Below are positions 1-16,659 of a stretch of 16,659 bases of DNA, in pieces. The notes beneath the pieces were generated by a model. That model was given only the letters and a program-made list of their open reading frames with translations. It had not been told where the DNA came from and ran no database searches. Every line of letters starts with the position of its first letter. Position 1 is the first letter of the stretch. A program made the position numbers and the translations under genes. The stretch is from a virus (lineage: Duplodnaviria > Heunggongvirae > Uroviricota > Caudoviricetes). Location: the IMG/VR virus record IMGVR_UViG_2548876696_000013; one strand, written 5' to 3'.

Positions 1-1461
1 ATGAAAAAATTACTGCGTCTTTTTTTCCCGCTCTCGCTGCGGGTACGTTTTCTGTTGGCAACGGCAGCGGTAGTACTGGTGCTTTCGCTTGCCTACGGAA
101 TGGTCGCGCTGATCGGTTATAGCGTCAGTTTCGATAAAACTACGTTTCGGCTGTTACGTGGCGAGAGCAATCTGTTCTATACCCTTGCGAAGTGGGAAAA
201 CAATAAGTTGCATGTCGAGTTACCCGAAAATATCGACAAGCAAAGCCCCACCATGACGCTAATTTATGATGAGAACGGGCAGCTTTTATGGGCGCAACGT
301 GACGTGCCCTGGCTGATGAAGATGATCCAGCCTGACTGGCTGAAATCGAATGGTTTTCATGAAATTGAAGCGGATGTTAACGATACCAGCCTCTTGCTGA
401 GTGGAGATCATTCGATACAGCAACAGTTGCAGGAAGTGCGGGAAGATGATGACGACGCGGAGATGACCCACTCGGTGGCGGTAAACGTCTACCCGGCAAC
501 ATCGCGGATGCCAAAGTTAACCATTGTGGTGGTGGATACCATTCCGGTGGAGCTAAAAAGTTCCTATATGGTCTGGAGCTGGTTTATCTATGTGCTCTCA
601 GCCAATCTGCTGTTAGTGATCCCGCTGCTGTGGGTCGCCGCCTGGTGGAGTTTACGCCCCATCGAAGCCCTGGCAAAAGAAGTCCGCGAACTGGAAGAAC
701 ATAACCGCGAATTGCTCAATCCAGCCACAACGCGAGAACTGACCAGTCTGGTACGAAACCTGAACCGATTGTTAAAAAGCGAACGCGAACGTTACGACAA
801 ATACCGTACAACGCTCACCGACCTGACCCATAGTCTGAAAACGCCACTGGCGGTGCTGCAAAGTACGCTGCGTTCTCTGCGTAGTGAAAAGATGAGCGTC
901 AGTGATGCTGAACCGGTAATGCTGGAGCAAATCAGCCGCATTTCACAGCAAATTGGCTACTACCTGCATCGTGCCAGTATGCGCGGCGGGACATTGCTCA
1001 GCCGCGAGCTGCATCCGGTCGCCCCACTGCTGGACAATCTCACCTCGGCGCTGAACAAAGTGTATCAACGCAAAGGGGTCAATATCTCTCTCGATATTTC
1101 GCCAGAGATCAGCTTTGTCGGTGAGCAGAACGATTTTGTCGAGGTGATGGGCAATGTGCTGGATAATGCCTGTAAATATTGCCTCGAGTTTGTCGAAATT
1201 TCTGCAAGGCAAACCGACGAGCATCTCTATATTGTGGTCGAGGATGATGGACCCGGTATTCCATTAAGCAAGCGAGAGGTCATTTTCGACCGTGGTCAAC
1301 GGGTTGATACTTTACGCCCTGGGCAAGGTGTGGGGCTGGCGGTAGCCCGCGAAATCACCGAGCAATATGAGGGTAAAATCGTCGCCGGAGAGAGCATGCT
1401 GGGCGGTGCGCGGATGGAGGTGATTTTTGGTCGCCAGCATTCTGCGCCGAAAGATGAATAA
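1..1461 (+). CDS. phoQ: Sensor histidine kinase PhoQ, complete (486 aa)
   Basis: Full-length ORF. Translation shows two TM segments flanking a periplasmic sensor domain with the acidic patch EDDDDAE, an H-box ([10 protein letters not shown]) and ATP-binding G-boxes ([15 protein letters not shown]). Recognised from memory as enterobacterial PhoQ; not verified by search. Confidence 0.95.
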
Positions 1462-9235: not shown

Positions 9236-9460
9236 TCAGTCCCTGATCCCTTTCAGAAATTCTATCAATGCATCTGTCTGTTCAGGATTTACCGCCAGCA
9301 TTTCACCGGATAGCGCGCAACGAACAAAACCATGATGATCCTTTTCAATCAGCGCCCCCGTTTCCAGGAATGCTCGGTAATCAGTGATGTTCATCGTCTC
9401 CATGTTGTCAGCATGGTATTTATCACGCTGTTTTAATATCTCATCAAATTTCGTCGGCAT
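9236..9460 (-). CDS. Hypothetical protein (74 aa), insulated monocistronic gene
   Basis: Start chosen at the internal ATG (9458-9460), which has GAGGA 7 nt upstream. Flanked on both sides by near-identical terminator hairpins. Confidence 0.55.
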   Translation of the reverse strand: MPTKFDEILKQRDKYHADNMETMNITDYRAFLETGALIEKDHHGFVRCALSGEMLAVNPEQTDALIEFLKGIRD

Positions 9461-9554
9461 TGTTTTTTCCTCTGTTGTGTCTGTTTGTTTCAGATAGTAA
9501 CTATGCCGGACCGTGACGAAAAGCCAGTAGTGCGCCATACCATTTCAAATGACG

Positions 9555-9600: not shown

Positions 9601-9849
9601 CTACTCAGCTAATTTGCTCAGCCCCATGTCTGCATAAGTGCGATTTACTGCATTTCTCAGGTCTGCGTAGTTCTCCGTTGGCGGCTCCGGTGGCCTCTGT
9701 GCCTTCCTGGAACATTCCAGCCGTCGCATCGTAACCTGATGCCGTTCCTTGTCTGTCTCCACCAGCTGCATGACTTCACCCCATCGCGCCGCCGCCCTCC
9801 GGTAAAATCCTTTCGCCTCGAGTTCCTCCGCTATGCGGTCATGTACCAT
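9601..9849 (-). CDS. PerC/ANR-like small transcriptional regulator (82 aa from the internal start MVHDR)
   Basis: Start chosen immediately after the SSB stop, with a strong SD (GAGGGGGTGAGG then ATG). The motif AEELEAKGFYRRAAARWGEV resembles the PerC-family core from memory. The longer ORF to 9969 would overlap SSB. Confidence 0.45.
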   Translation of the reverse strand: MVHDRIAEELEAKGFYRRAAARWGEVMQLVETDKERHQVTMRRLECSRKAQRPPEPPTENYADLRNAVNRTYADMGLSKLAE

Positions 9850-9859
9850 CCTCACCCCC

Positions 9860-10270
9860 TCAGAACGGAATACCATCACCGTAAGGGTCATCGCCTCCCG
9901 CTGGTGGCTGATTACCCTGTGTGCCTGTGGTTTTGCGTCTGTTCCCGCCTGGACGTGCCGCGCGGGCACTGATTACGCTGTCTGCGATAACCTGCCAGCC
10001 CTGCCGCGTTTCGCCGTTCTGGCCTGTCCACTGGCTTACCTGCATCGTGCCGGATACGCTGGCAACATCGCCTTTTTGATGTTTAGCCAGGAAGTCGGCC
10101 TGTTTGCCAAATGCGATGACCGATAACCATAACGTCGCCTGTCCGTCCTGTGCCTGGCTGCATGGCAAAGATACCGCCATACGCGCCAGCGTCATCGGTG
10201 TGCCCTTGCTGGTCTGTTTTACCTGCGGGTCGTCCACCAGCCGCCCGTAAGCGGCTATCTGTGCCGTCAT
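9860..10270 (-). CDS. ssb: Single-stranded DNA-binding protein (136 aa)
   Basis: OB-fold-like N-terminus (YGRLVDDPQVKQTSKGTPMTLARMAV), Gly/Pro/Gln-rich linker and acidic C-terminal tip DDPYGDGIPF characteristic of SSB. ATGA overlap with the upstream gene. Confidence 0.8.
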   Translation of the reverse strand: MTAQIAAYGRLVDDPQVKQTSKGTPMTLARMAVSLPCSQAQDGQATLWLSVIAFGKQADFLAKHQKGDVASVSGTMQVSQWTGQNGETRQGWQVIADSVISARAARPGGNRRKTTGTQGNQPPAGGDDPYGDGIPF

Positions 10271-10518
10271 AATTCCACCTCTCCGGTTTTAACGTTGATG
10301 GTTGTTACCTGTTCCGCTTCGGCAATCTCCCGTTCTGTCAGCGTGGCAAAGTTTGCCGCTGCTGTGGTCATGAATGCGCTTATCAGGTCGGGATGTTCTT
10401 TCGCGTATCCTTCCCCCGCGTGGCGGTCTATCGTTCTGATTGCCACCTTTAAGGCGTGCTCTGTCATGTCTAATGCTTTATATTTTGGCGCTGTCTTATC
10501 TCTGGTTTTTCTGTTCAT
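10267..10518 (-). CDS. Hypothetical protein (83 aa), first gene after the origin
   Basis: ORF translationally coupled to ssb (ATGA overlap). Start abuts the iteron array. No family recognised. Confidence 0.5.
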   Translation of the reverse strand: MNRKTRDKTAPKYKALDMTEHALKVAIRTIDRHAGEGYAKEHPDLISAFMTTAAANFATLTEREIAEAEQVTTINVKTGEVEL

Positions 10519-10716
10519 TCCCCACTACTCCCCACTTTTGCTCCCCACTTTTTGAAATTACCCACCGTCTCCCCACCTCTTTTTTTTGTGATTCTAACGT
10601 TATGTTTTTCAATATGTTTTTTACTCCCCACTTTTTTGGGTGTATACAGGTGGGAAAGTGGGTAATTATGTTTCAATTTTGTTAAATTCCCCACTCTCCC
10701 CACTTTTACTCCCCAC
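10519..10716. repeat. Iteron-type replication origin: 8 direct TCCCCAC repeats, 1 variant, 2 inverted copies and an AT-rich spacer
   Basis: TCCCCAC at 10519, 10529, 10542, 10570, 10625, 10688, 10697 and 10710; variant ACCCACC at 10560; inverted copies at 10649-10664; AT-rich stretch at 10577-10624. Lies directly 3' of the replication ATPase gene. Confidence 0.7.
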
Positions 10717-10719
10717 TTT

Positions 10720-12129
10720 TTACAGCGGGCGCACGTCATCACCGTCAATAACGATTACGCCATCATTTTCCAGCTTGTACAGCCAGCGCCGGAAGTGCTT
10801 CATCTCATACCCCAGCTTTTTCATATCATCGCGGAGAAGGGCGATAGTGCACGCCTCCCCGTGTGCTGTTCGTGTTCTGATGCACTGCCATAGCGCGGCG
10901 TGATTCTCCGTCTTGTTCCCTGCCTCCTCGATGCGCTCCAGTTCAACGGGAGGGCGCGGCTTATCCACCACCACCAGCGACGTGATTAACTCCCCGTCAG
11001 CGTCGGTAAAAAGCTCCACCACCCGCAAATCATAGGCAGCCTCTTTGAGTTCCTCCGCGTCCTTCATTTTGGTGCATGAGATAACCAGCGCTTCGCTTCC
11101 TGCGTCCTCCCTGCGTATCCGGTATTCAGCATCCAGTGATGCACGAAATGCACTGGAACCGCGCGCGCCTTTCGTCTCATCCTTGCCGGAATGGTGAACC
11201 ACCAGCACCGTGGCCCCTGTGCGCCGTTTCAGTTCGTCACACCCACGGATAAACGCCCCCATGTCACGGGAATCATTTTCGTCATTGCCGCCAAAGCAAC
11301 GCGCCAGCGTGTCCAGAATAATCATGCGAACAGGTTTACCCGTTTCCCGCTCAACCTGGCTGGCAGCAATAACCAGTTCATCAACATCAAGCGGGACAGC
11401 CGGAAAGATGGGACGGTTTACAAGGTAAAGATTTTTCACCTGCTCCCCGTGCACAACCTCCCAGGCTTTTACACGACGCGGAACGCCAATACCGCCTTCA
11501 CCAACCACATAGAGAACAGCGCCATGCGCCACCCTGCGGCCTCCCCACTGGCGGCCCGTGGAAACGTGACACGCCCACGATCCGGCAAGGAATGATTTAT
11601 AGGAACCGCTCGCCCCGTATATGCTGCAAAGCGACGATGCCGGAATAATCCCCTTTACCACGTAATCAAGCTGTGTGTCGTATCCGGTAGATCCAACGCT
11701 CATCGGTAGCGTGGTTTTTCGCTGGGGGATTTTTTTCATGACCAGGCTTTCCCCGCGTTCCCATGCCTCCCTAAGCCGTGGAAGCTGGTCGTTCCATTCC
11801 TCCAGCAATTCGAAATTTTCAGAAAGTAGCCGCGCCTCCTGGACTCCGGCGATCGCCAGTTTCGTGGCGATGGTTAACAGCTGCGGCTCTTCAATATTTC
11901 CGGCGCGTATCACCGTCGCCCTGTATCGCCCATCATCAACAATCTGGAGGTTATCCAGTTCGCTTAACTGATAACGCCCCAGATAAACGGGAGGGACTGG
12001 ATCGCCTGCTTTTTTGGCCTGTGCAATGATGTAGTGCTCTGCAAATGAGTGCGCATTATTCCCCGCGAAAATAATTGCTTCGGTGTATTTGTCTTTCGGT
12101 AATAGTTTTACGTTCGGTGCAAGTTTCAT
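10720..12129 (-). CDS. Replication initiation ATPase / helicase-like protein, RecA-fold AAA type (469 aa)
   Basis: Walker A motif GASGSYKS, Walker B-like MIILDTLARCF, and a C-terminal putative winged-helix region. Position immediately upstream of the iterons. Confidence 0.8.
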   Translation of the reverse strand: MKLAPNVKLLPKDKYTEAIIFAGNNAHSFAEHYIIAQAKKAGDPVPPVYLGRYQLSELDNLQIVDDGRYRATVIRAGNIEEPQLLTIATKLAIAGVQEARLLSENFELLEEWNDQLPRLREAWERGESLVMKKIPQRKTTLPMSVGSTGYDTQLDYVVKGIIPASSLCSIYGASGSYKSFLAGSWACHVSTGRQWGGRRVAHGAVLYVVGEGGIGVPRRVKAWEVVHGEQVKNLYLVNRPIFPAVPLDVDELVIAASQVERETGKPVRMIILDTLARCFGGNDENDSRDMGAFIRGCDELKRRTGATVLVVHHSGKDETKGARGSSAFRASLDAEYRIRREDAGSEALVISCTKMKDAEELKEAAYDLRVVELFTDADGELITSLVVVDKPRPPVELERIEEAGNKTENHAALWQCIRTRTAHGEACTIALLRDDMKKLGYEMKHFRRWLYKLENDGVIVIDGDDVRPL

Positions 12130-12425
12130 TTTTTACCCCTGAATACGTTCAACATCTTTCTTATTTCCTGAATATTGGCGCGTGCTTTCTCCCTGCTGGT
12201 GGGCACGTTACGCGGTACAGCCTGCACCAGAGAAAAATCACGGTCGAACTGATAAACAGGCATAACGCAATCATATTCGTAGCCTTCACGGCGGTAAGTT
12301 ACGCGCCGTTCCTCCACGCCCTTAATCATTACCGTGCCGCCGTACTGGTCGCGGTAAATATCACCGCGCGTAAATTTAGGGTGAGTGTTGCCACTGGCAG
12401 TTAAGCCAGGATATTTAAGTTTCAT
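12126..12425 (-). CDS. DUF4222-like small protein (99 aa)
   Basis: The pattern GDIYRDQYGGTVMIKGVEERRVTYRREGYEYDCVMPVYQF resembles the DUF4222 family often found next to satellite or prophage replication genes (from memory). ATGA overlap with the rep gene. Confidence 0.55.
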   Translation of the reverse strand: MKLKYPGLTASGNTHPKFTRGDIYRDQYGGTVMIKGVEERRVTYRREGYEYDCVMPVYQFDRDFSLVQAVPRNVPTSREKARANIQEIRKMLNVFRGKK

Positions 12426-12430
12426 TATTT

Positions 12431-12658
12431 TTATTCTCCGGTGTGGGGCGCTTTATTATTTTCGTGAATTGCCATCGCCTTATCCAGTTCATCAATTACA
12501 GGCGATAGTAATGTCTGAACGGCGGCAAATATTAATGATGCAGGTTCTCCACCATCTTCCGGCACGTCTATTAACTTAATTAACAGCGCATTCATTTCAC
12601 GCGCTTTAATTAATGCGTTTTCAGAATGAATAAGAACATCATAGGGTATTTTATGCAT
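12431..12658 (-). CDS. Hypothetical protein (75 aa)
   Basis: ORF whose start overlaps the stop of the upstream small gene by 8 nt (ATGCATAA). No family recognised. Confidence 0.5.
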   Translation of the reverse strand: MHKIPYDVLIHSENALIKAREMNALLIKLIDVPEDGGEPASLIFAAVQTLLSPVIDELDKAMAIHENNKAPHTGE

Positions 12659-12821
12659 GACTCACCCCCTGACGAATACGGGCGACAAAAATCAGATGTG
12701 CGCGCGGCAACTGGGCGCGGGCTTCGCGTTCAGTGGCTGCGGTAACGGTGTAAATATCAATGCTGCTGTGGTGGCACTGCATAAAGCGCCAGACAAAGTA
12801 AGGGCGTGCGGATACAGCCAT
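12651..12821 (-). CDS. Small protein, paralog B (56 aa core; possibly Icd-like). A longer 150-aa form starting at 13115 is also possible
   Basis: Shares FVWRF, TEREAR and ARIRQG motifs with paralog A. A synonymous codon difference in the shared ARIRQG segment supports coding on this strand. Start is ambiguous. Confidence 0.45.
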   Translation of the reverse strand: MAVSARPYFVWRFMQCHHSSIDIYTVTAATEREARAQLPRAHLIFVARIRQGVSHA

Positions 12822-13107
12822 GTGAAAGGCTCCCAGATGAAATTTAAGGAGTCTCGCTACTACGCTGCTAAACGGGGTGGCGAGACGTAACAGGGTTAGC
12901 AGACTGGTCATCTGGAAACCAGCGAGCGCAAAGGCTCCCCCGTTACGCCCCGCCATAATGCGGGTATGGGTAGGTTTACGGACACAAAAAAACCGCTTAT
13001 CGGATATGGGCGGCTGTCCGCCAGATGTATTCAGGCTGCTAAACCCGGTCGCCATGTGGGCGACGGGTGAAGCATACAGCCCCGTTATAATTTTTTGCAA
13101 GCGGCTT

Positions 13108-13305
13108 TTACTCATGATGTGACCCCTGACGAATACGAGCGGCAAATACAGCAACACAACCGGACGGGCAACGGTTACGCGCTTCGCGTTCCGTCCAGGC
13201 GGTGACGTGGATGATTTGAGATTCTCCGGCACTCAGGGCCAGAAAACGCCACACAAAGGCCGTTTGTGTGTGTACAAGGTGTGGTATATGATTTACGGCA
13301 ACCAT
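13108..13305 (-). CDS. Small protein, paralog A (65 aa); possible host cell-division-inhibitor Icd-like protein
   Basis: Strong SD (GAGGAG 6 nt upstream of the ATG). Paralogous to 12651-12821. The Icd-like call rests on an uncertain memory of the family pattern. Confidence 0.5.
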   Translation of the reverse strand: MVAVNHIPHLVHTQTAFVWRFLALSAGESQIIHVTAWTEREARNRCPSGCVAVFAARIRQGSHHE

Positions 13306-13336
13306 AACGGCTCCTCGTTTACGTTGTTGGTTAGAA

Positions 13337-13377
13337 GCCCCGTATGTGTTCCAGCACTGCGGGGTTTCGTCTTTTCT
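13337..13377 (+). terminator. Hairpin (ccccg / cgggg stem, conserved 17-nt loop) with a U-rich tail; plus-strand terminator-like element, copy 1
   Basis: Seen in sequence. A near-identical element, including the loop, occurs at 14083-14124. Confidence 0.45.
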
Positions 13378-13394
13378 GTACCTTGCATCAACAA

Positions 13395-13476
13395 GGTGTA
13401 AGACACAATGTAAAATAACGGTGTCTTACACGTCAACCCTTCAAAATATTTTTTTTTCGTGTATATTGTCTTACAC
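13395..13476. promoter_or_regulatory. Divergent promoter/operator region with three GTCTTACAC sites (one inverted pair and one direct copy)
   Basis: GGTGTAAGACAC at 13395-13406 is the reverse complement of GTGTCTTACAC at 13421-13431; a third copy lies at 13467-13476. A possible sigma70 promoter (TTCAAA, 16-nt spacer, TATATT) sits at 13440-13467. Confidence 0.5.
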
Positions 13477-13497
13477 CAAAAACATGAGGGGTTAAAC

Positions 13498-13677
13498 ATG
13501 GCAACGGGGCCAAAGAATGCAAAATCACAATCTGTAACTGCACGTATTGCCCATGAAATTATTGAAGGCATGGAGAACGTGAAAGAAGAAGGTGAAAGCA
13601 CGGGGCAGTTTATAAACGCAGCCATGCGCGGCGAAATCAAACGCCGCCAGCGTCGCAAGGCCAAAGAATCAGAATAA
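13498..13677 (+). CDS. Ribbon-helix-helix (CopG/Arc/MetJ-like) DNA-binding protein (59 aa); candidate repressor
   Basis: GAGGGG SD 7 nt upstream of the ATG. Beta-strand/helix/helix pattern (QSVTARIAHEIIEGMENVKEEGESTGQFINAAMRGEI) and a basic C-terminal tail. Confidence 0.55.
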   Translation: MATGPKNAKSQSVTARIAHEIIEGMENVKEEGESTGQFINAAMRGEIKRRQRRKAKESE

Positions 13678-13734
13678 TCACTATCAGCGCCGTGGTGTGA
13701 GGTACTACGGCGCATTGCTTTACAGGGCAGTATC

Positions 13735-13962
13735 ATGACCAACAACACACTATCACCAATACAAGACACGCAAACGCAAGATGATGAAATCATCCGGCAA
13801 AGGCAGTCAGAAGCCTGCGCCAGACTTGAGGAAGAACTAACCAGAACAAAAATACCACCACCAGCGCCGCGCTTAGTGCCACCAGAAAAATTTGCCCTTG
13901 AAGATTTTGTCGATAAATACCCACGGCGGCTTAAATCCGGCAAAAACCGACCGCCAGGATGA
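13735..13962 (+). CDS. Small hydrophilic protein (75 aa), partner of the RHH protein, module 1
   Basis: Paralogous to 14420-14623 (both start MTN; shared motif F-x-L-[ED]-[DE]-F-[VL]-x-K-Y-[PS]-R). Weak SD. Confidence 0.4.
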   Translation: MTNNTLSPIQDTQTQDDEIIRQRQSEACARLEEELTRTKIPPPAPRLVPPEKFALEDFVDKYPRRLKSGKNRPPG

Positions 13963-14082
13963 GTGCACAAAACCGAACTATGAAACGGATTATTCCGTTT
14001 CCGGGGCGTTTGTGTGTGTATAAAGAGTAAGCTATGCTCTTTTATAGCCATAATCGTTACCTCAATTAATGGTTTGGTTAGA

Positions 14083-14124
14083 CGCCCCGTATGTGTTCCC
14101 ATCACTGCGGGGCGTTGTTTTTTG
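14083..14124 (+). terminator. Rho-independent terminator-like hairpin (CGCCCCG / CGGGGCG) plus TTGTTTTTTG, copy 2
   Basis: 7-bp stem, 18-nt loop nearly identical to the loop at 13343-13359, then a T-rich tract. Confidence 0.5.
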
Positions 14125-14130
14125 TGCTAG

Positions 14131-14164
14131 TTGTGTGTAATGTGTATATACACATAAACACATT
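14131..14164. promoter_or_regulatory. Operator-like 16-bp perfect palindrome ATGTGTATATACACAT (14140-14155) overlapping a putative -10 element
   Basis: Perfect palindrome seen directly. Possible promoter TTGTGC (14122-14127), 17-nt spacer, TATATA (14145-14150). Confidence 0.45.
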
Positions 14165-14182
14165 ATATGGGGTGTAATTGAC

Positions 14183-14362
14183 GTGTCAACACACAAGAAT
14201 GAAAGGCGTGGTAATCCTCCTTTCCAGTTCCGTTTAGATCCTGACTTACGGGAAAAGATGGAAAAAGCACAACAACAAGACGGTGATGACTCTTTAGCTG
14301 CTTGGATAAAACGAATAATCCGAAAAGAATTACAGCAACGCGGTATTGAACCCAAAGAATAA
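14183..14362 (+). CDS. Arc-like ribbon-helix-helix protein (59 aa, GTG start)
   Basis: Absent from the supplied ORF track because it is only 59 aa. GGGGTG SD 8 nt upstream of GTG at 14183. The pattern PPFQFRLDPDLREKMEKAQQQDGDDSLAAWIKRIIRKEL matches the Arc/RHH fold. Confidence 0.5.
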   Translation: MSTHKNERRGNPPFQFRLDPDLREKMEKAQQQDGDDSLAAWIKRIIRKELQQRGIEPKE

Positions 14363-14419
14363 AAAACATCAGCGCCGTGGCGTGAGGAACTCCGGCGCAT
14401 TGCTTTACAGGTACACACA

Positions 14420-14623
14420 ATGACCAATAAAGAATCAACCAATACACCATCGCAAAAAACGAACAGAGAGCACGAAAATATGGCGCTCGAGCATGAATCA
14501 GAAAGATTCGCTCCATGCGCTTTTGTCCTTGATGAGTTTCTAAAAAAATATTCACGTTCTGAACGGATGAAAATGGCAGCACAATACGGCCCCAACAAGC
14601 AAGGTAATTGCCCACCAGCCTGA
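14420..14623 (+). CDS. Small hydrophilic protein (67 aa), partner of the RHH protein, module 2
   Basis: Paralog of 13735-13962; preceded by the same conserved hairpin element. Confidence 0.4.
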   Translation: MTNKESTNTPSQKTNREHENMALEHESERFAPCAFVLDEFLKKYSRSERMKMAAQYGPNKQGNCPPA

Positions 14624-14697
14624 TAGCGGCTATCATTCCCGTGCTTATGTTTGGGATCACATACACATAAGGCGCAGCAGGTTAATTGTTCAGAAAG

Positions 14698-14726
14698 GCG
14701 GCTCCATATCGGGGCCGCTTTTTTTA
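14698..14726 (+). terminator. Strong Rho-independent terminator (GCGGCTCC-atatc-GGGGCCGC then T7)
   Basis: 8-bp GC-rich stem with one G-U pair, 5-nt loop, seven T's. Ends the plus-strand modules and lies convergent with the alpA 3' end. Confidence 0.75.
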
Positions 14727-14866
14727 TGCCTGAAAAACCCCAATTTTGTTGTTTTTCAGTTTCACCAGGGCGAACGAATCCCCGCCCACGTTCGGGCGCA
14801 TATTCAATCTTCATAGTTATATCTCTGTATTAGTGGATGTGTGGCGACTGTGTGCCGCCAGTCTTT

Positions 14867-15055
14867 TTAGTGAACTGCCTTGCAGCTATCCTTCCAGGCC
14901 AAAACCTCAGATAAAGACCAGCCAACAGAACGCCCACCAAGTTTACGACGTGATGGGAATTGTCCGGCCTTTTCCAGGCGGTAGCGGCATGAGCGGCTAA
15001 GGCCTGTTAGCTTTTCGCATTCTTTTTCACGTATAAACCGATCAGTGCTTAACAC
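14867..15055 (-). CDS. alpA: AlpA-family phage regulatory protein / excisionase-like HTH (62 aa, GTG start)
   Basis: Motif KLTGLSRSCRYRLEKAGQFPSRRKLGGRSVGWSLSEVLAWK is typical of the AlpA/Vis family. SD AAGGGGG lies 7 nt upstream of the GTG. Confidence 0.85.
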   Translation of the reverse strand: MLSTDRFIREKECEKLTGLSRSCRYRLEKAGQFPSRRKLGGRSVGWSLSEVLAWKDSCKAVH

Positions 15056-15429: not shown

Positions 15430-16659
15430 TTATTTTATTCTGGTTACTGGTAGCGTGGTTACGTTTTCATGTGTTCCCGCCAGTATCTCCAACCGCTCCA
15501 CCCACATATCAAGCGCATTGCGTTTCGCATCAATATAGCGGGAATGGTTGTACACGCGTTGCATTCCTGGCATCTGGTGGCCTGTAAGCTGCTCCACGAC
15601 GTGAGGATCAACGCCTAAATCGTTCAGCATGGTTGTAAAGGTGCGCCGGATGTCATGCAGTGACCAGTGAGGGTGTTTAAGCCTCCTGTGCACCAATCTG
15701 CCGTACTGCGATACGCTGGTTTCCTGTTTCACTTCCCCCAGCAATAAGCCCGTGTGCCTGTTCTGCTCCACCAGCTGCGTGACGAACGGCAGTATCGCTT
15801 CCGGTATGGGCCGGAATATGGCTACCTTCGTTTTGCTGTGCTCCTTCGGAACGGTCCAGAGCATTTCGGTAAAATCCCACTCGCCGATCTCCGATAACCT
15901 CAGTTCTACTGTCCGGCATCCGAAAACAATCAGGAGGCGGATTAGTGCGACGTAGTAAGGGGAAAATATTTTTTTGTCCAGTGCCTGCAATAATTCGCCA
16001 AGTTCTTTGTTACTTAAGACACGCTCACTTATATCCGGTTTTTTCCCAACGTCCGCCACACTCATATCATCAAGAACGTTGCTGATTGCATAGCGCCGCT
16101 TCCTGCAGAACTTAAGCGCCTGCTTGCATGTCTGTAGCAGGAACCCGGCGGAAACAGGGGCTTTCTTTGCCACCCGATCAAAACAGGCCAGCCAGTGCCG
16201 TAGCTCGCATTTATCCAGCGGCATAGGGCCAATGTGCTGTATTACGTGATTATTTAGCCGCTTTTTCAGTGGGTCATAATCCACACGGTTTTCCTTTGCG
16301 TACGACTCAAGCCAGTAGGTGAGCGCATCGCCAACCGTTACCGGCTTTAACGCTTCCTGTACGGTGTAATTCATTTCATGACGTGGATTTTTCCCCTCTG
16401 CCAGCCATGCGCGACACTGGGCGGCTTTTTCCCTGGCTGATTTCAGGCTCAGATCAGGATAATTTCCCAGCTTAATGCGTTCCGGTGGTGCCCCCCTTCC
16501 CGTTCCGGCCCTGTAAGTGAAATACCAGGTTAAAAGGCCACTGGTTGAATGCCTGACGCTCAGGTTTCCACCGTCATTAAGAAAGGCTGTTTTTTGGGCG
16601 GGTGTGCCGTTGATTTTCCTCAGCTGTGTATCGCTCAGTTTGTTAAGTGCTCTGCTCAT
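15430..16659 (-). CDS. int: Tyrosine site-specific integrase, P4-like (409 aa; start codon is the last three bases of the window)
   Basis: N-terminal arm-binding-like region (LSDTQLRKI ... DGGNLSVRHSTSGLLTWYFTYR) and a C-terminal catalytic region with conserved R, HxxR and Y (HDIRRTF ... YNHSRYID). The upstream RBS is outside the window, so the true start could lie further out. Confidence 0.9.
   Translation of the reverse strand: MSRALNKLSDTQLRKINGTPAQKTAFLNDGGNLSVRHSTSGLLTWYFTYRAGTGRGAPPERIKLGNYPDLSLKSAREKAAQCRAWLAEGKNPRHEMNYTVQEALKPVTVGDALTYWLESYAKENRVDYDPLKKRLNNHVIQHIGPMPLDKCELRHWLACFDRVAKKAPVSAGFLLQTCKQALKFCRKRRYAISNVLDDMSVADVGKKPDISERVLSNKELGELLQALDKKIFSPYYVALIRLLIVFGCRTVELRLSEIGEWDFTEMLWTVPKEHSKTKVAIFRPIPEAILPFVTQLVEQNRHTGLLLGEVKQETSVSQYGRLVHRRLKHPHWSLHDIRRTFTTMLNDLGVDPHVVEQLTGHQMPGMQRVYNHSRYIDAKRNALDMWVERLEILAGTHENVTTLPVTRIK

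Follow-up and report, generated by a model that had tools for sequence, protein, structure and literature searches.

A probable RepA-bound iteron origin directly downstream of the helicase gene in an Escherichia coli-type capsid-forming PICI

In Gram-negative PICIs, two sets of iterons flank an AT-rich region immediately 3' of the initiator gene, and EcCICFT073's pri-rep-ori segment was shown by plasmid maintenance to be a replicon (Fillol-Salom et al. 2018, PMC6092414). In the SaPIs, the Rep protein is a helicase whose C-terminal winged helix recognises iterons located directly after rep; the origins of SaPIbov1, SaPI1 and SaPI5 contain 6-12 short iterons, AT-rich DNA at the centre and iterons of opposed orientation on the two sides, and are bound and melted by the Reps without ATP (PMC9371898). 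The prototype of the capsid-forming PICIs (cfPICIs), EcCIEDL933, replicates after induction by the helpers HK106 and HK446, and the paper that describes cfPICIs mentions neither origin nor iterons (bioRxiv 10.1101/2022.09.08.507074). Here we describe a repeat array at positions 10519-10716 of a cfPICI which, we are confident, is the replication origin of the island and is bound by the island's helicase, RepA.

The stretch of DNA analysed here, called the window in the following, is 16,659 bp long (IMG/VR record IMGVR_UViG_2548876696_000013) and is an E. coli-type cfPICI inserted next to phoQ; the carrier of the array is this satellite and not a plasmid. Everything to the right of phoQ forms one island on the minus strand (Table 1). 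The att core of the roxA(ycfD)-phoQ site, AAATATGTCC, lies at 1460 and overlaps the end of phoQ; the published core of the ycfD-phoQ site is GGACATATTT, whose complement is found at this same position (PMC6092414 Table S1). Based on Pfam assignments, the island carries int, alpA, rep and its own genes from capsid to TerL in about 15 kb, as expected of a cfPICI. After the SSB region the morphogenesis genes follow in the order capsid, prohead protease, portal, head completion/connectors, HNH, TerS and TerL, with no tail genes. The SSB is likely a replication accessory. No primase was recognised in the island among the Pfam, PHROG and NCBIfam assignments, and PADLOC and NCBIfam searches with the ORFs lacking an assignment returned nothing related to replication. 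Of 5,426 complete E. coli genomes, 538 have a match to the packaging module, and in 416 of these the match extends over 80% or more of the module. The whole window is found at near-identity in none of the 5,426 (the best matches reach 96-97% identity over 91-94%), and a 2-kb query across repA and the origin has up to 8 matching places per E. coli genome.

Table 1. Features of the window, from phoQ and then along the island from int towards the capsid gene.
Feature	Position	Strand	Remarks
phoQ	1-1461		window start
integrase (int)	15430-16659	-	cut by window end
AlpA	14867-15055	-	
two ORFs, 270 and 250 aa	13293-14105, 14062-14814	-	between alpA and the icd-like gene
Icd-like ORF with C4 antisense RNA inside	12651-13232	-	
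75-aa ORF	12431-12658		between the Icd-like gene and DUF4222
DUF4222 gene			directly upstream of repA
repA, 469-aa AAA_25 helicase	10720-12129	-	
winged-helix domain of RepA, aa 408-469	10723-10908	-	proposed iteron reader; His445 codon 10795-10797
rep-proximal arm, 3 direct iterons	10710-10716, 10697-10703, 10688-10694	-	spacing 13 and 9 bp
inverted imperfect iteron pair	10650-10664	+	opposed to all others; inverted copy here in 78/78 related loci
palindrome TGTATACA	10641-10648		flanked by the inverted iterons and the single direct one
single direct iteron	10625-10631	-	rep-proximal edge of the AT-rich spacer
AT-rich spacer, presumed DNA-unwinding element	10577-10624		48 bp, G+C 0.24
far spacer edge, 2 iterons	10570-10576 (GTGGGGA), 10559-10565 (variant GTGGGTA)	-	
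rep-distal arm, 3 direct iterons	10542-10548, 10529-10535, 10519-10525	-	last copy abuts the ATG of the next gene
83-aa gene, phrog_1231	10267-10518	-	always follows this origin type; downstream edge of the cassette
SSB gene	9860-10270	-	Pfam SSB, E 1.7e-16
Mor/PerC-like protein	9601-9969		activator-family PHROG matches only
100-aa ORF	9236-9538		between the Mor/PerC-like gene and the capsid gene

Several other features of the island are recorded here for completeness. The two overlapping ORFs between alpA and the icd-like gene occupy the slot where PICIs often have accessory or defence cargo, and have no match in Pfam, PHROGs, NCBIfam or PADLOC. A C4 antisense RNA (RF01695; 71.6 bits, E 1.5e-12), the only Rfam match reported, lies at 12873-12960 on the minus strand, inside the ORF whose C-terminal 48 aa match the Icd-like family of cell-division inhibitors, an arrangement that resembles the c4-icd region of phages P1 and P7; this 193-aa ORF is probably over-called, the true icd gene being short. 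Between attR and the end of terL, two non-coding repeat families are interleaved: four 37-nt units at 1898-2272, each composed of a short hairpin TCCTCAAATTGAGG followed by ATATCAAC-N4-TTA, and three copies of GCTTTAAGTTCAACCAGTTACCGCC at 2072-2316. This stretch may be the packaging (cos/pac) region of the island. Finally, a tandem 12-mer, ATTGACTACACC ATTAACTACACC, stands at 1543-1566, on the island side of the att core and about 80 bp from it, and its two units are possible arm-type sites of the integrase.

Nine exact copies of the heptamer TCCCCAC are found in the window, where 1.9 would be expected and 200 dinucleotide-preserving shuffles gave 6 at most; eight of the nine lie within 10519-10716 (starting at 10519, 10529, 10542, 10570, 10625, 10688, 10697 and 10710). 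With the variant TACCCAC (10559-10565) and two imperfect inverted copies, GTGGGAA (10650-10656) and GTGGGTA (10658-10664), the repeat count confirms the composition reported in the initial annotation of this DNA. That annotation gave the repeat word as plus-strand letters; since all genes here are on the minus strand, the iteron reads GTGGGGA in gene direction, usually with AAAA before it and mostly as AAAAGTGGGGA. It had also placed the start of the array 4 bp past the rep stop codon, and indeed 3 bases separate this codon (10720-10722) from the first iteron, which begins on the fourth. At the other end, the array was described as overlapping the start of the next gene, which has to be amended: it abuts the ATG at 10516-10518. 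The rep side holds four direct and two inverted iterons and the far side five direct ones, the variant included; the direct copy at 10625-10631 intervenes between the inverted pair and the spacer.

The 48-bp AT-rich spacer that splits the array was likewise found as annotated, with 77% A+T in a window of 51% G+C. By nearest-neighbour calculation it is the third least stable non-overlapping 48-mer in the 16.6 kb (-52.9 kcal/mol, compared with a mean of -67.5 and a standard deviation of 4.6), and only two 48-mers, both from the regulatory spacer between int and alpA, are less stable. The inverted pair and the two iterons at the far edge bracket the AT-rich spacer as a 19-nt inverted repeat, whose halves at 10556-10574 and 10649-10667 are 79% complementary. 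No DnaA box, with one mismatch allowed, and no IHF site were found in 10519-10716, and the counts of both over the whole window are at chance level, so that an opening assisted by host DnaA or IHF is unsupported. Rfam has no match in the origin. A 77-aa ORF (10515-10748) that covers the array had been regarded as spurious, and we reject it as a gene as well, the same frame being closed in five homologous regions by 3 to 8 stops (4-5 in L006, L007 and L010, 3 in L011 and 8 in L002). In E. coli UMNF18 (L009), RefSeq lists a 50-aa 'hypothetical protein' at 1823-1975, within the homologous origin, and this is a spurious ORF of the same kind.

We compared ten divergent E. coli copies of the locus and found 80 loci in other Enterobacterales with the RepA protein. 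In 78 of these, four or more direct repeat cores directly follow the stop codon of the helicase gene, and the layout is the same in all 78, from Escherichia, Xenorhabdus, Pantoea, Kosakonia, Pectobacterium, Morganella, Serratia and other genera. Counted from the stop codon, the common map consists of two or three direct copies, one or two inverted copies at about 55 bp, a direct copy about 30 bp past the inverted ones, a gap of about 50 bp, and a second direct arm. In most of the 78 loci the least G+C-rich 40 bp of the gap have 12-30% G+C; roughly one locus in four has its AT-richest stretch elsewhere and no marked dip in the gap. A TRTATAYA palindrome is present at the matching place in 40 of the 78 loci, including loci with another iteron word. 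The conservation of the palindrome (TGTATACA in the window) despite the change of the iteron word suggests that it has a role of its own, for example as the first melting point or as the centre of a double-ring assembly.

The positions of the iterons are fixed, and the word that occupies them varies by lineage. GTGGGGA is found in the window, in Pantoea and in Kosakonia; GTGAGGA in some E. coli (including L009) and in Xenorhabdus; GTGAGTA (L006) and GTGGGCA in other E. coli; GTGGGGG in Serratia, Pectobacterium and Morganella; and GTGCGGC in Kosakonia cowanii, Phytobacter, Enterobacter soli and Klebsiella. Within one element all copies, the inverted ones included, share one change, which is the signature of a single reader protein that changes together with its sites.

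One of the related elements is a circular 'plasmid' record of 16,971 bp from Klebsiella pneumoniae (CP018459.1, L093), with genes for an integrase, capsid and terminase, for a RepA-type helicase and, where alpA stands in the window, for a DNA-binding protein. The origin of this element follows the common map; its iteron word is GTGCGGC, it contains the palindrome TGTATACA, and the helicase has a Ser where RepA of the window has His445 (see below). This record fits an excised, self-replicating form of such an island, the alternative being an assembly of induced DNA. Of note, between terL and int it contains a 3.4-kb gene annotated as tail tape measure protein (10983-14390), which is unexpected for a satellite described as having no tail genes.

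RepA consists of three parts: some 130 aa form the N-terminal domain, a RecA-type AAA_25 core follows (approximately residues 150-320), and a winged helix lies at the C terminus (residues 408-469). The core is assigned to Pfam AAA_25 (E 8.6e-44), the RefSeq homologs of RepA are annotated 'helicase RepA family protein', and the Walker A motif is a variant, GASGSYKS, that is invariant in the family. A PDB sequence search with RepA gave no match at E ≤0.01. With the full-length model, Foldseek returned RecA-fold matches (RadA, Rad51 and a DnaB-type helicase), which are weak because the core is poorly modelled; the pLDDT of this model falls below 50 at residues 151-176 and 315-396. We modelled residues 398-469 separately with AlphaFold2 on a 31-sequence alignment. 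The resulting model has a mean pLDDT of 88.5 and predicts helices at 408-422, 429-438 and 446-455, followed by a beta hairpin at 459-468, that is, a winged helix. Its best Foldseek matches in the PDB are the winged helices of DtxR/IdeR (including DNA complexes), Fur, LexA, histone H1, MCM and RPA2, with TM scores of 0.62-0.69, rmsd of 2-3 Å and E-values of 0.04-0.2, which are weak because the domain is short (72 aa). In the model, residue 445 directly precedes helix 3, the predicted recognition helix. In Xenorhabdus, Serratia, Pectobacterium and others, fusion proteins of about 700 aa carry a zinc-ribbon/Toprim primase at the N terminus, ahead of the same core and winged helix.

Comparison of the iteron words with the RepA sequences points to the C-terminal domain as the reader of the origin. 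The E. coli RepA proteins are mosaics, in which two alleles of the N-terminal 130 aa and two alleles of the core both occur independently of the iteron word, whereas the last 60 aa sort exactly by it. The N-terminal domain and the helicase core, whose alleles are shuffled with respect to the iteron type in the E. coli set, were thus rejected as candidate readers. Between the window and L009, the last 62 residues differ at four positions only (H445N, N455S, V460A and D465Y), and GTGGGGA is changed to GTGAGGA in every iteron. In an unbiased scan of approximately 330 aligned C-terminal columns in 71 distinct sequences, residue 445 was the only column that fully predicted base 4 of the iteron (conditional entropy 0), the next best column, with many residue types, having a conditional entropy of 0.27. 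The pairs are His-G in 11 sequences, Lys-G in 27, Asn-A in 25 and Ser-C in 8, with no exceptions, and a simpler count of residue 445 against base 4 agrees in 81 of 81 loci. These pairs correspond to common amino-acid-to-base preferences in protein-DNA structures. A weaker hint links residue 446 (Phe, Leu or Met) to base 6 (G, C or T), in the E. coli lineages only. The sequences are related, and we estimate that the His/Asn switch took place independently in two or three lineages. This co-variation is strong comparative evidence that RepA binds the iterons.

The origins described in other satellites allow a closer comparison. The window shares its plan with the SaPIs, which are phage satellites as well: an origin after rep, in the position 3' of the initiator gene that is also known from Gram-negative PICIs, iteron sets around an AT-rich centre, opposed iterons and a helicase as initiator. 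Recognition of the iterons by a C-terminal winged helix, as in the SaPI Reps, is supported in RepA by the predicted fold and by the co-variation at residue 445. The differences concern the motor, the SaPI Reps belonging to AAA+ superfamilies 3 and 6 and RepA being a RecA-type AAA_25 protein (RepA/DnaB-like), as well as the iterons, which are 7 bp or longer with an A-tract in the window, and the host, which is Gram-negative. RepA is therefore not a member of the SaPI Rep family as defined by the AAA+ core; it would work like a SaPI Rep with a motor that is not homologous.

EcCICFT073 (L092), the only Gram-negative PICI whose origin has been tested, resembles the window in its roxA/ycfD-phoQ att site, in the DUF4222 gene upstream, in the small gene and the SSB gene downstream, and in the position of its origin. 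Its initiator is a 584-aa protein of the primase family which has only the first ~130 aa in common with RepA (45% identity) and whose body is unrelated to it, its iterons (CTGTCTACC / TATCTACC) are unlike those of the window, and it has no packaging module of its own. EcCIEDL933 (L096) has the same att site and the same order of packaging genes as the window; as initiator it encodes a 710-aa DUF927 protein, which has nothing but the N-terminal domain in common with RepA, and its iterons, TAACCCGCA, lie in a 370-bp spacer. EcCI11128, from E. coli O111:H- 11128, encodes a RepA-family helicase and has after it a near-identical origin, with GTGGGGA iterons, the same spacer and a variant of the palindrome, TGTATATA. 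This island, a classical PICI of 9.3 kb, is inserted at the yejM/tRNA-Pro site and lacks the full capsid module. EcCI11128 is listed as a PICI in Table S1 of PMC6092414, so that this type of origin has been present in a catalogued PICI since 2018, and it may be among the origins in Fig. 2a of that paper.

The N-terminal domain of about 130 aa common to RepA and to the initiators of EcCICFT073 and EcCIEDL933 (45-46% identity) corresponds to 11743-12129 in the window (RepA aa 1-129), 5242-5640 in L092 and 9039-9420 in L096. It is confidently modelled as an alpha/beta fold (pLDDT 75-92), has no match in Pfam or NCBIfam, and does not track the iteron type. This domain may serve for docking, either of the DUF4222 protein, whose gene always lies just upstream, or of a host or helper factor. 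The islands at this att site thus exchange a cassette that begins within the initiator gene and ends where the 83-aa gene starts, and the reader domain and its sites, being adjacent, are inherited together.

More distant systems are also instructive. In polyomaviruses and papillomaviruses, the initiator (large T antigen or E1) is itself the replicative helicase, and two hexamers assemble on an origin in which opposed short repeats surround a central palindrome beside an AT tract. The proteins are unrelated to RepA (superfamily 3, with another origin-binding domain) and the hosts are eukaryotic, so that the likeness is only an analogy. Iteron plasmids such as RSF1010, pPS10, F and R6K carry direct repeats that are bound by a plasmid initiator beside an AT-rich region, and the RepA of RSF1010 is the helicase that gave the AAA_25-type family its name. 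In these plasmids the binder (RepC, or a Rep of the WH1-WH2 type) is separate from the helicase, the iterons are 17-22 bp long and DnaA boxes are usual, whereas in the window binder and helicase form one chain, the origin has no DnaA box and the iteron core is 7-11 bp. We found no separate Rep (Rep_3 / WH1-WH2) in the window, which sets it apart from the classical iteron plasmids.

Repeats in such a place could serve other purposes than replication. The array takes up all the intergenic DNA that separates repA from the gene after it, right up to the ATG, transcription has to cross the repeats since all genes run one way, and a gene for a Mor/PerC-like activator lies just downstream, as would suit repeats that serve as an operator or a regulatory array, with RepA or a different island regulator as the binding protein, and that control whether transcription starts or reads through into the 83-aa gene, the SSB gene, the PerC/Mor-like gene and the morphogenesis operon. 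Against this, a scan of 10200-11000 detected no promoter, hence no sigma-70-like one in 10519-10716, and its only terminator-like elements were two hairpins on the non-coding strand outside the array, none being found on the coding strand within 10519-10716. Furthermore, the iteron word tracks the winged helix of the helicase itself and no regulator, an AT-rich centre and opposed iterons are features of origins, and the same plan is a demonstrated origin in the SaPIs and in EcCICFT073. We consider it improbable that the array is regulatory and not an origin; binding of RepA may nevertheless have a secondary regulatory effect. The repeats could also be thought to assist translation of the next gene, as Shine-Dalgarno-like standby sites on the mRNA, given that GGGGAG and AGGAG inside them look the part and that the last copies precede the ATG. 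Yet the lineages with GTGCGGC, which is not Shine-Dalgarno-like, retain the layout, and the inverted copies and the distant rep-proximal arm would be left without a role. This explanation, together with that of a chance low-complexity stretch, which the shuffles exclude, is the least probable of all.

Arrays of short direct repeats are typical of the recognition sites of TerS and of plasmid centromeres, and the island encodes a TerS and a TerL of its own, so that a packaging (pac/cos) or partition site, read by TerS or by a centromere-binding protein, also has to be considered. The array is 6 kb from terS, however, and a separate repeat family (1898-2272) is found next to terL. It stays with repA across islands whose packaging modules are quite different, as in EcCI11128, and also where the capsid is annotated as 'major capsid protein' or as a fusion of ClpP-like prohead protease and major capsid protein. 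Moreover, the array co-varies with RepA, and no par genes were recognised in the island. A packaging or partition site is in our opinion very unlikely, even more so than a regulatory array. We therefore retain the reading of 10519-10716 as a RepA-bound replication origin, in agreement with the initial annotation, which had proposed an iteron origin 3' of its initiator gene with an AT-rich unwinding element; the helicase gene, the conserved layout, the co-variation and the published plan of PICI and SaPI origins all support it.

Our current working model, which builds on the one developed for the SaPI Reps, is as follows. A helper phage would induce the island, leading to its excision and to the production of RepA. 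The winged helix of each RepA protomer would read one AAAAGTGGGGA iteron, His445, at the start of the recognition helix, reading base 4. Protomers gathered on both arms and on the opposed iterons that bracket the spacer would build helicase rings and melt the spacer, and the RecA-type ring would load itself and then unwind the DNA. The SSB of the island, with host primase and polymerase, would complete the fork, and concatemers would be packaged by the island's own terminase. No primase being recognised in the island, priming rests on an assumed host enzyme. What the analysis shows are the repeats with their conserved layout, the unstable spacer, the predicted winged-helix fold and the co-variation of protein and DNA; binding, melting, self-loading of the helicase, the use of host DnaG and replication itself are inferred.

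Three of these ideas can be combined: a code between residue 445 and base 4, a switch of origin specificity in a few steps that lets a satellite escape cross-talk, and an N-terminal domain that serves as a common docking module. The few-step switch is conceivable given that only 3 bp lie between the end of the reader domain and its sites. If true, such a switch would free a satellite from cross-talk with co-resident satellites. We put the combination forward tentatively, as a reading that might hold in full but on which we would not rely.

Both the kind of origin and the class of satellites to which it belongs are already known; the feature is well supported but ordinary, and it leaves the current picture of satellite replication unchanged. 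What is added here is the reader domain with a candidate single-residue code, the conserved inverted pair and palindrome, and a cassette common to three types of initiator. For annotation, spurious ORFs inside such origins, like the 77-aa ORF of the window and the 50-aa ORF of L009, can be removed. The results set the location of the origin for a widespread family of cfPICIs and name the winged-helix domain, and within it the single residue 445, as the likeliest reader of that origin, and they explain why initiator gene and origin travel together, as one cassette, among islands with a common att site.
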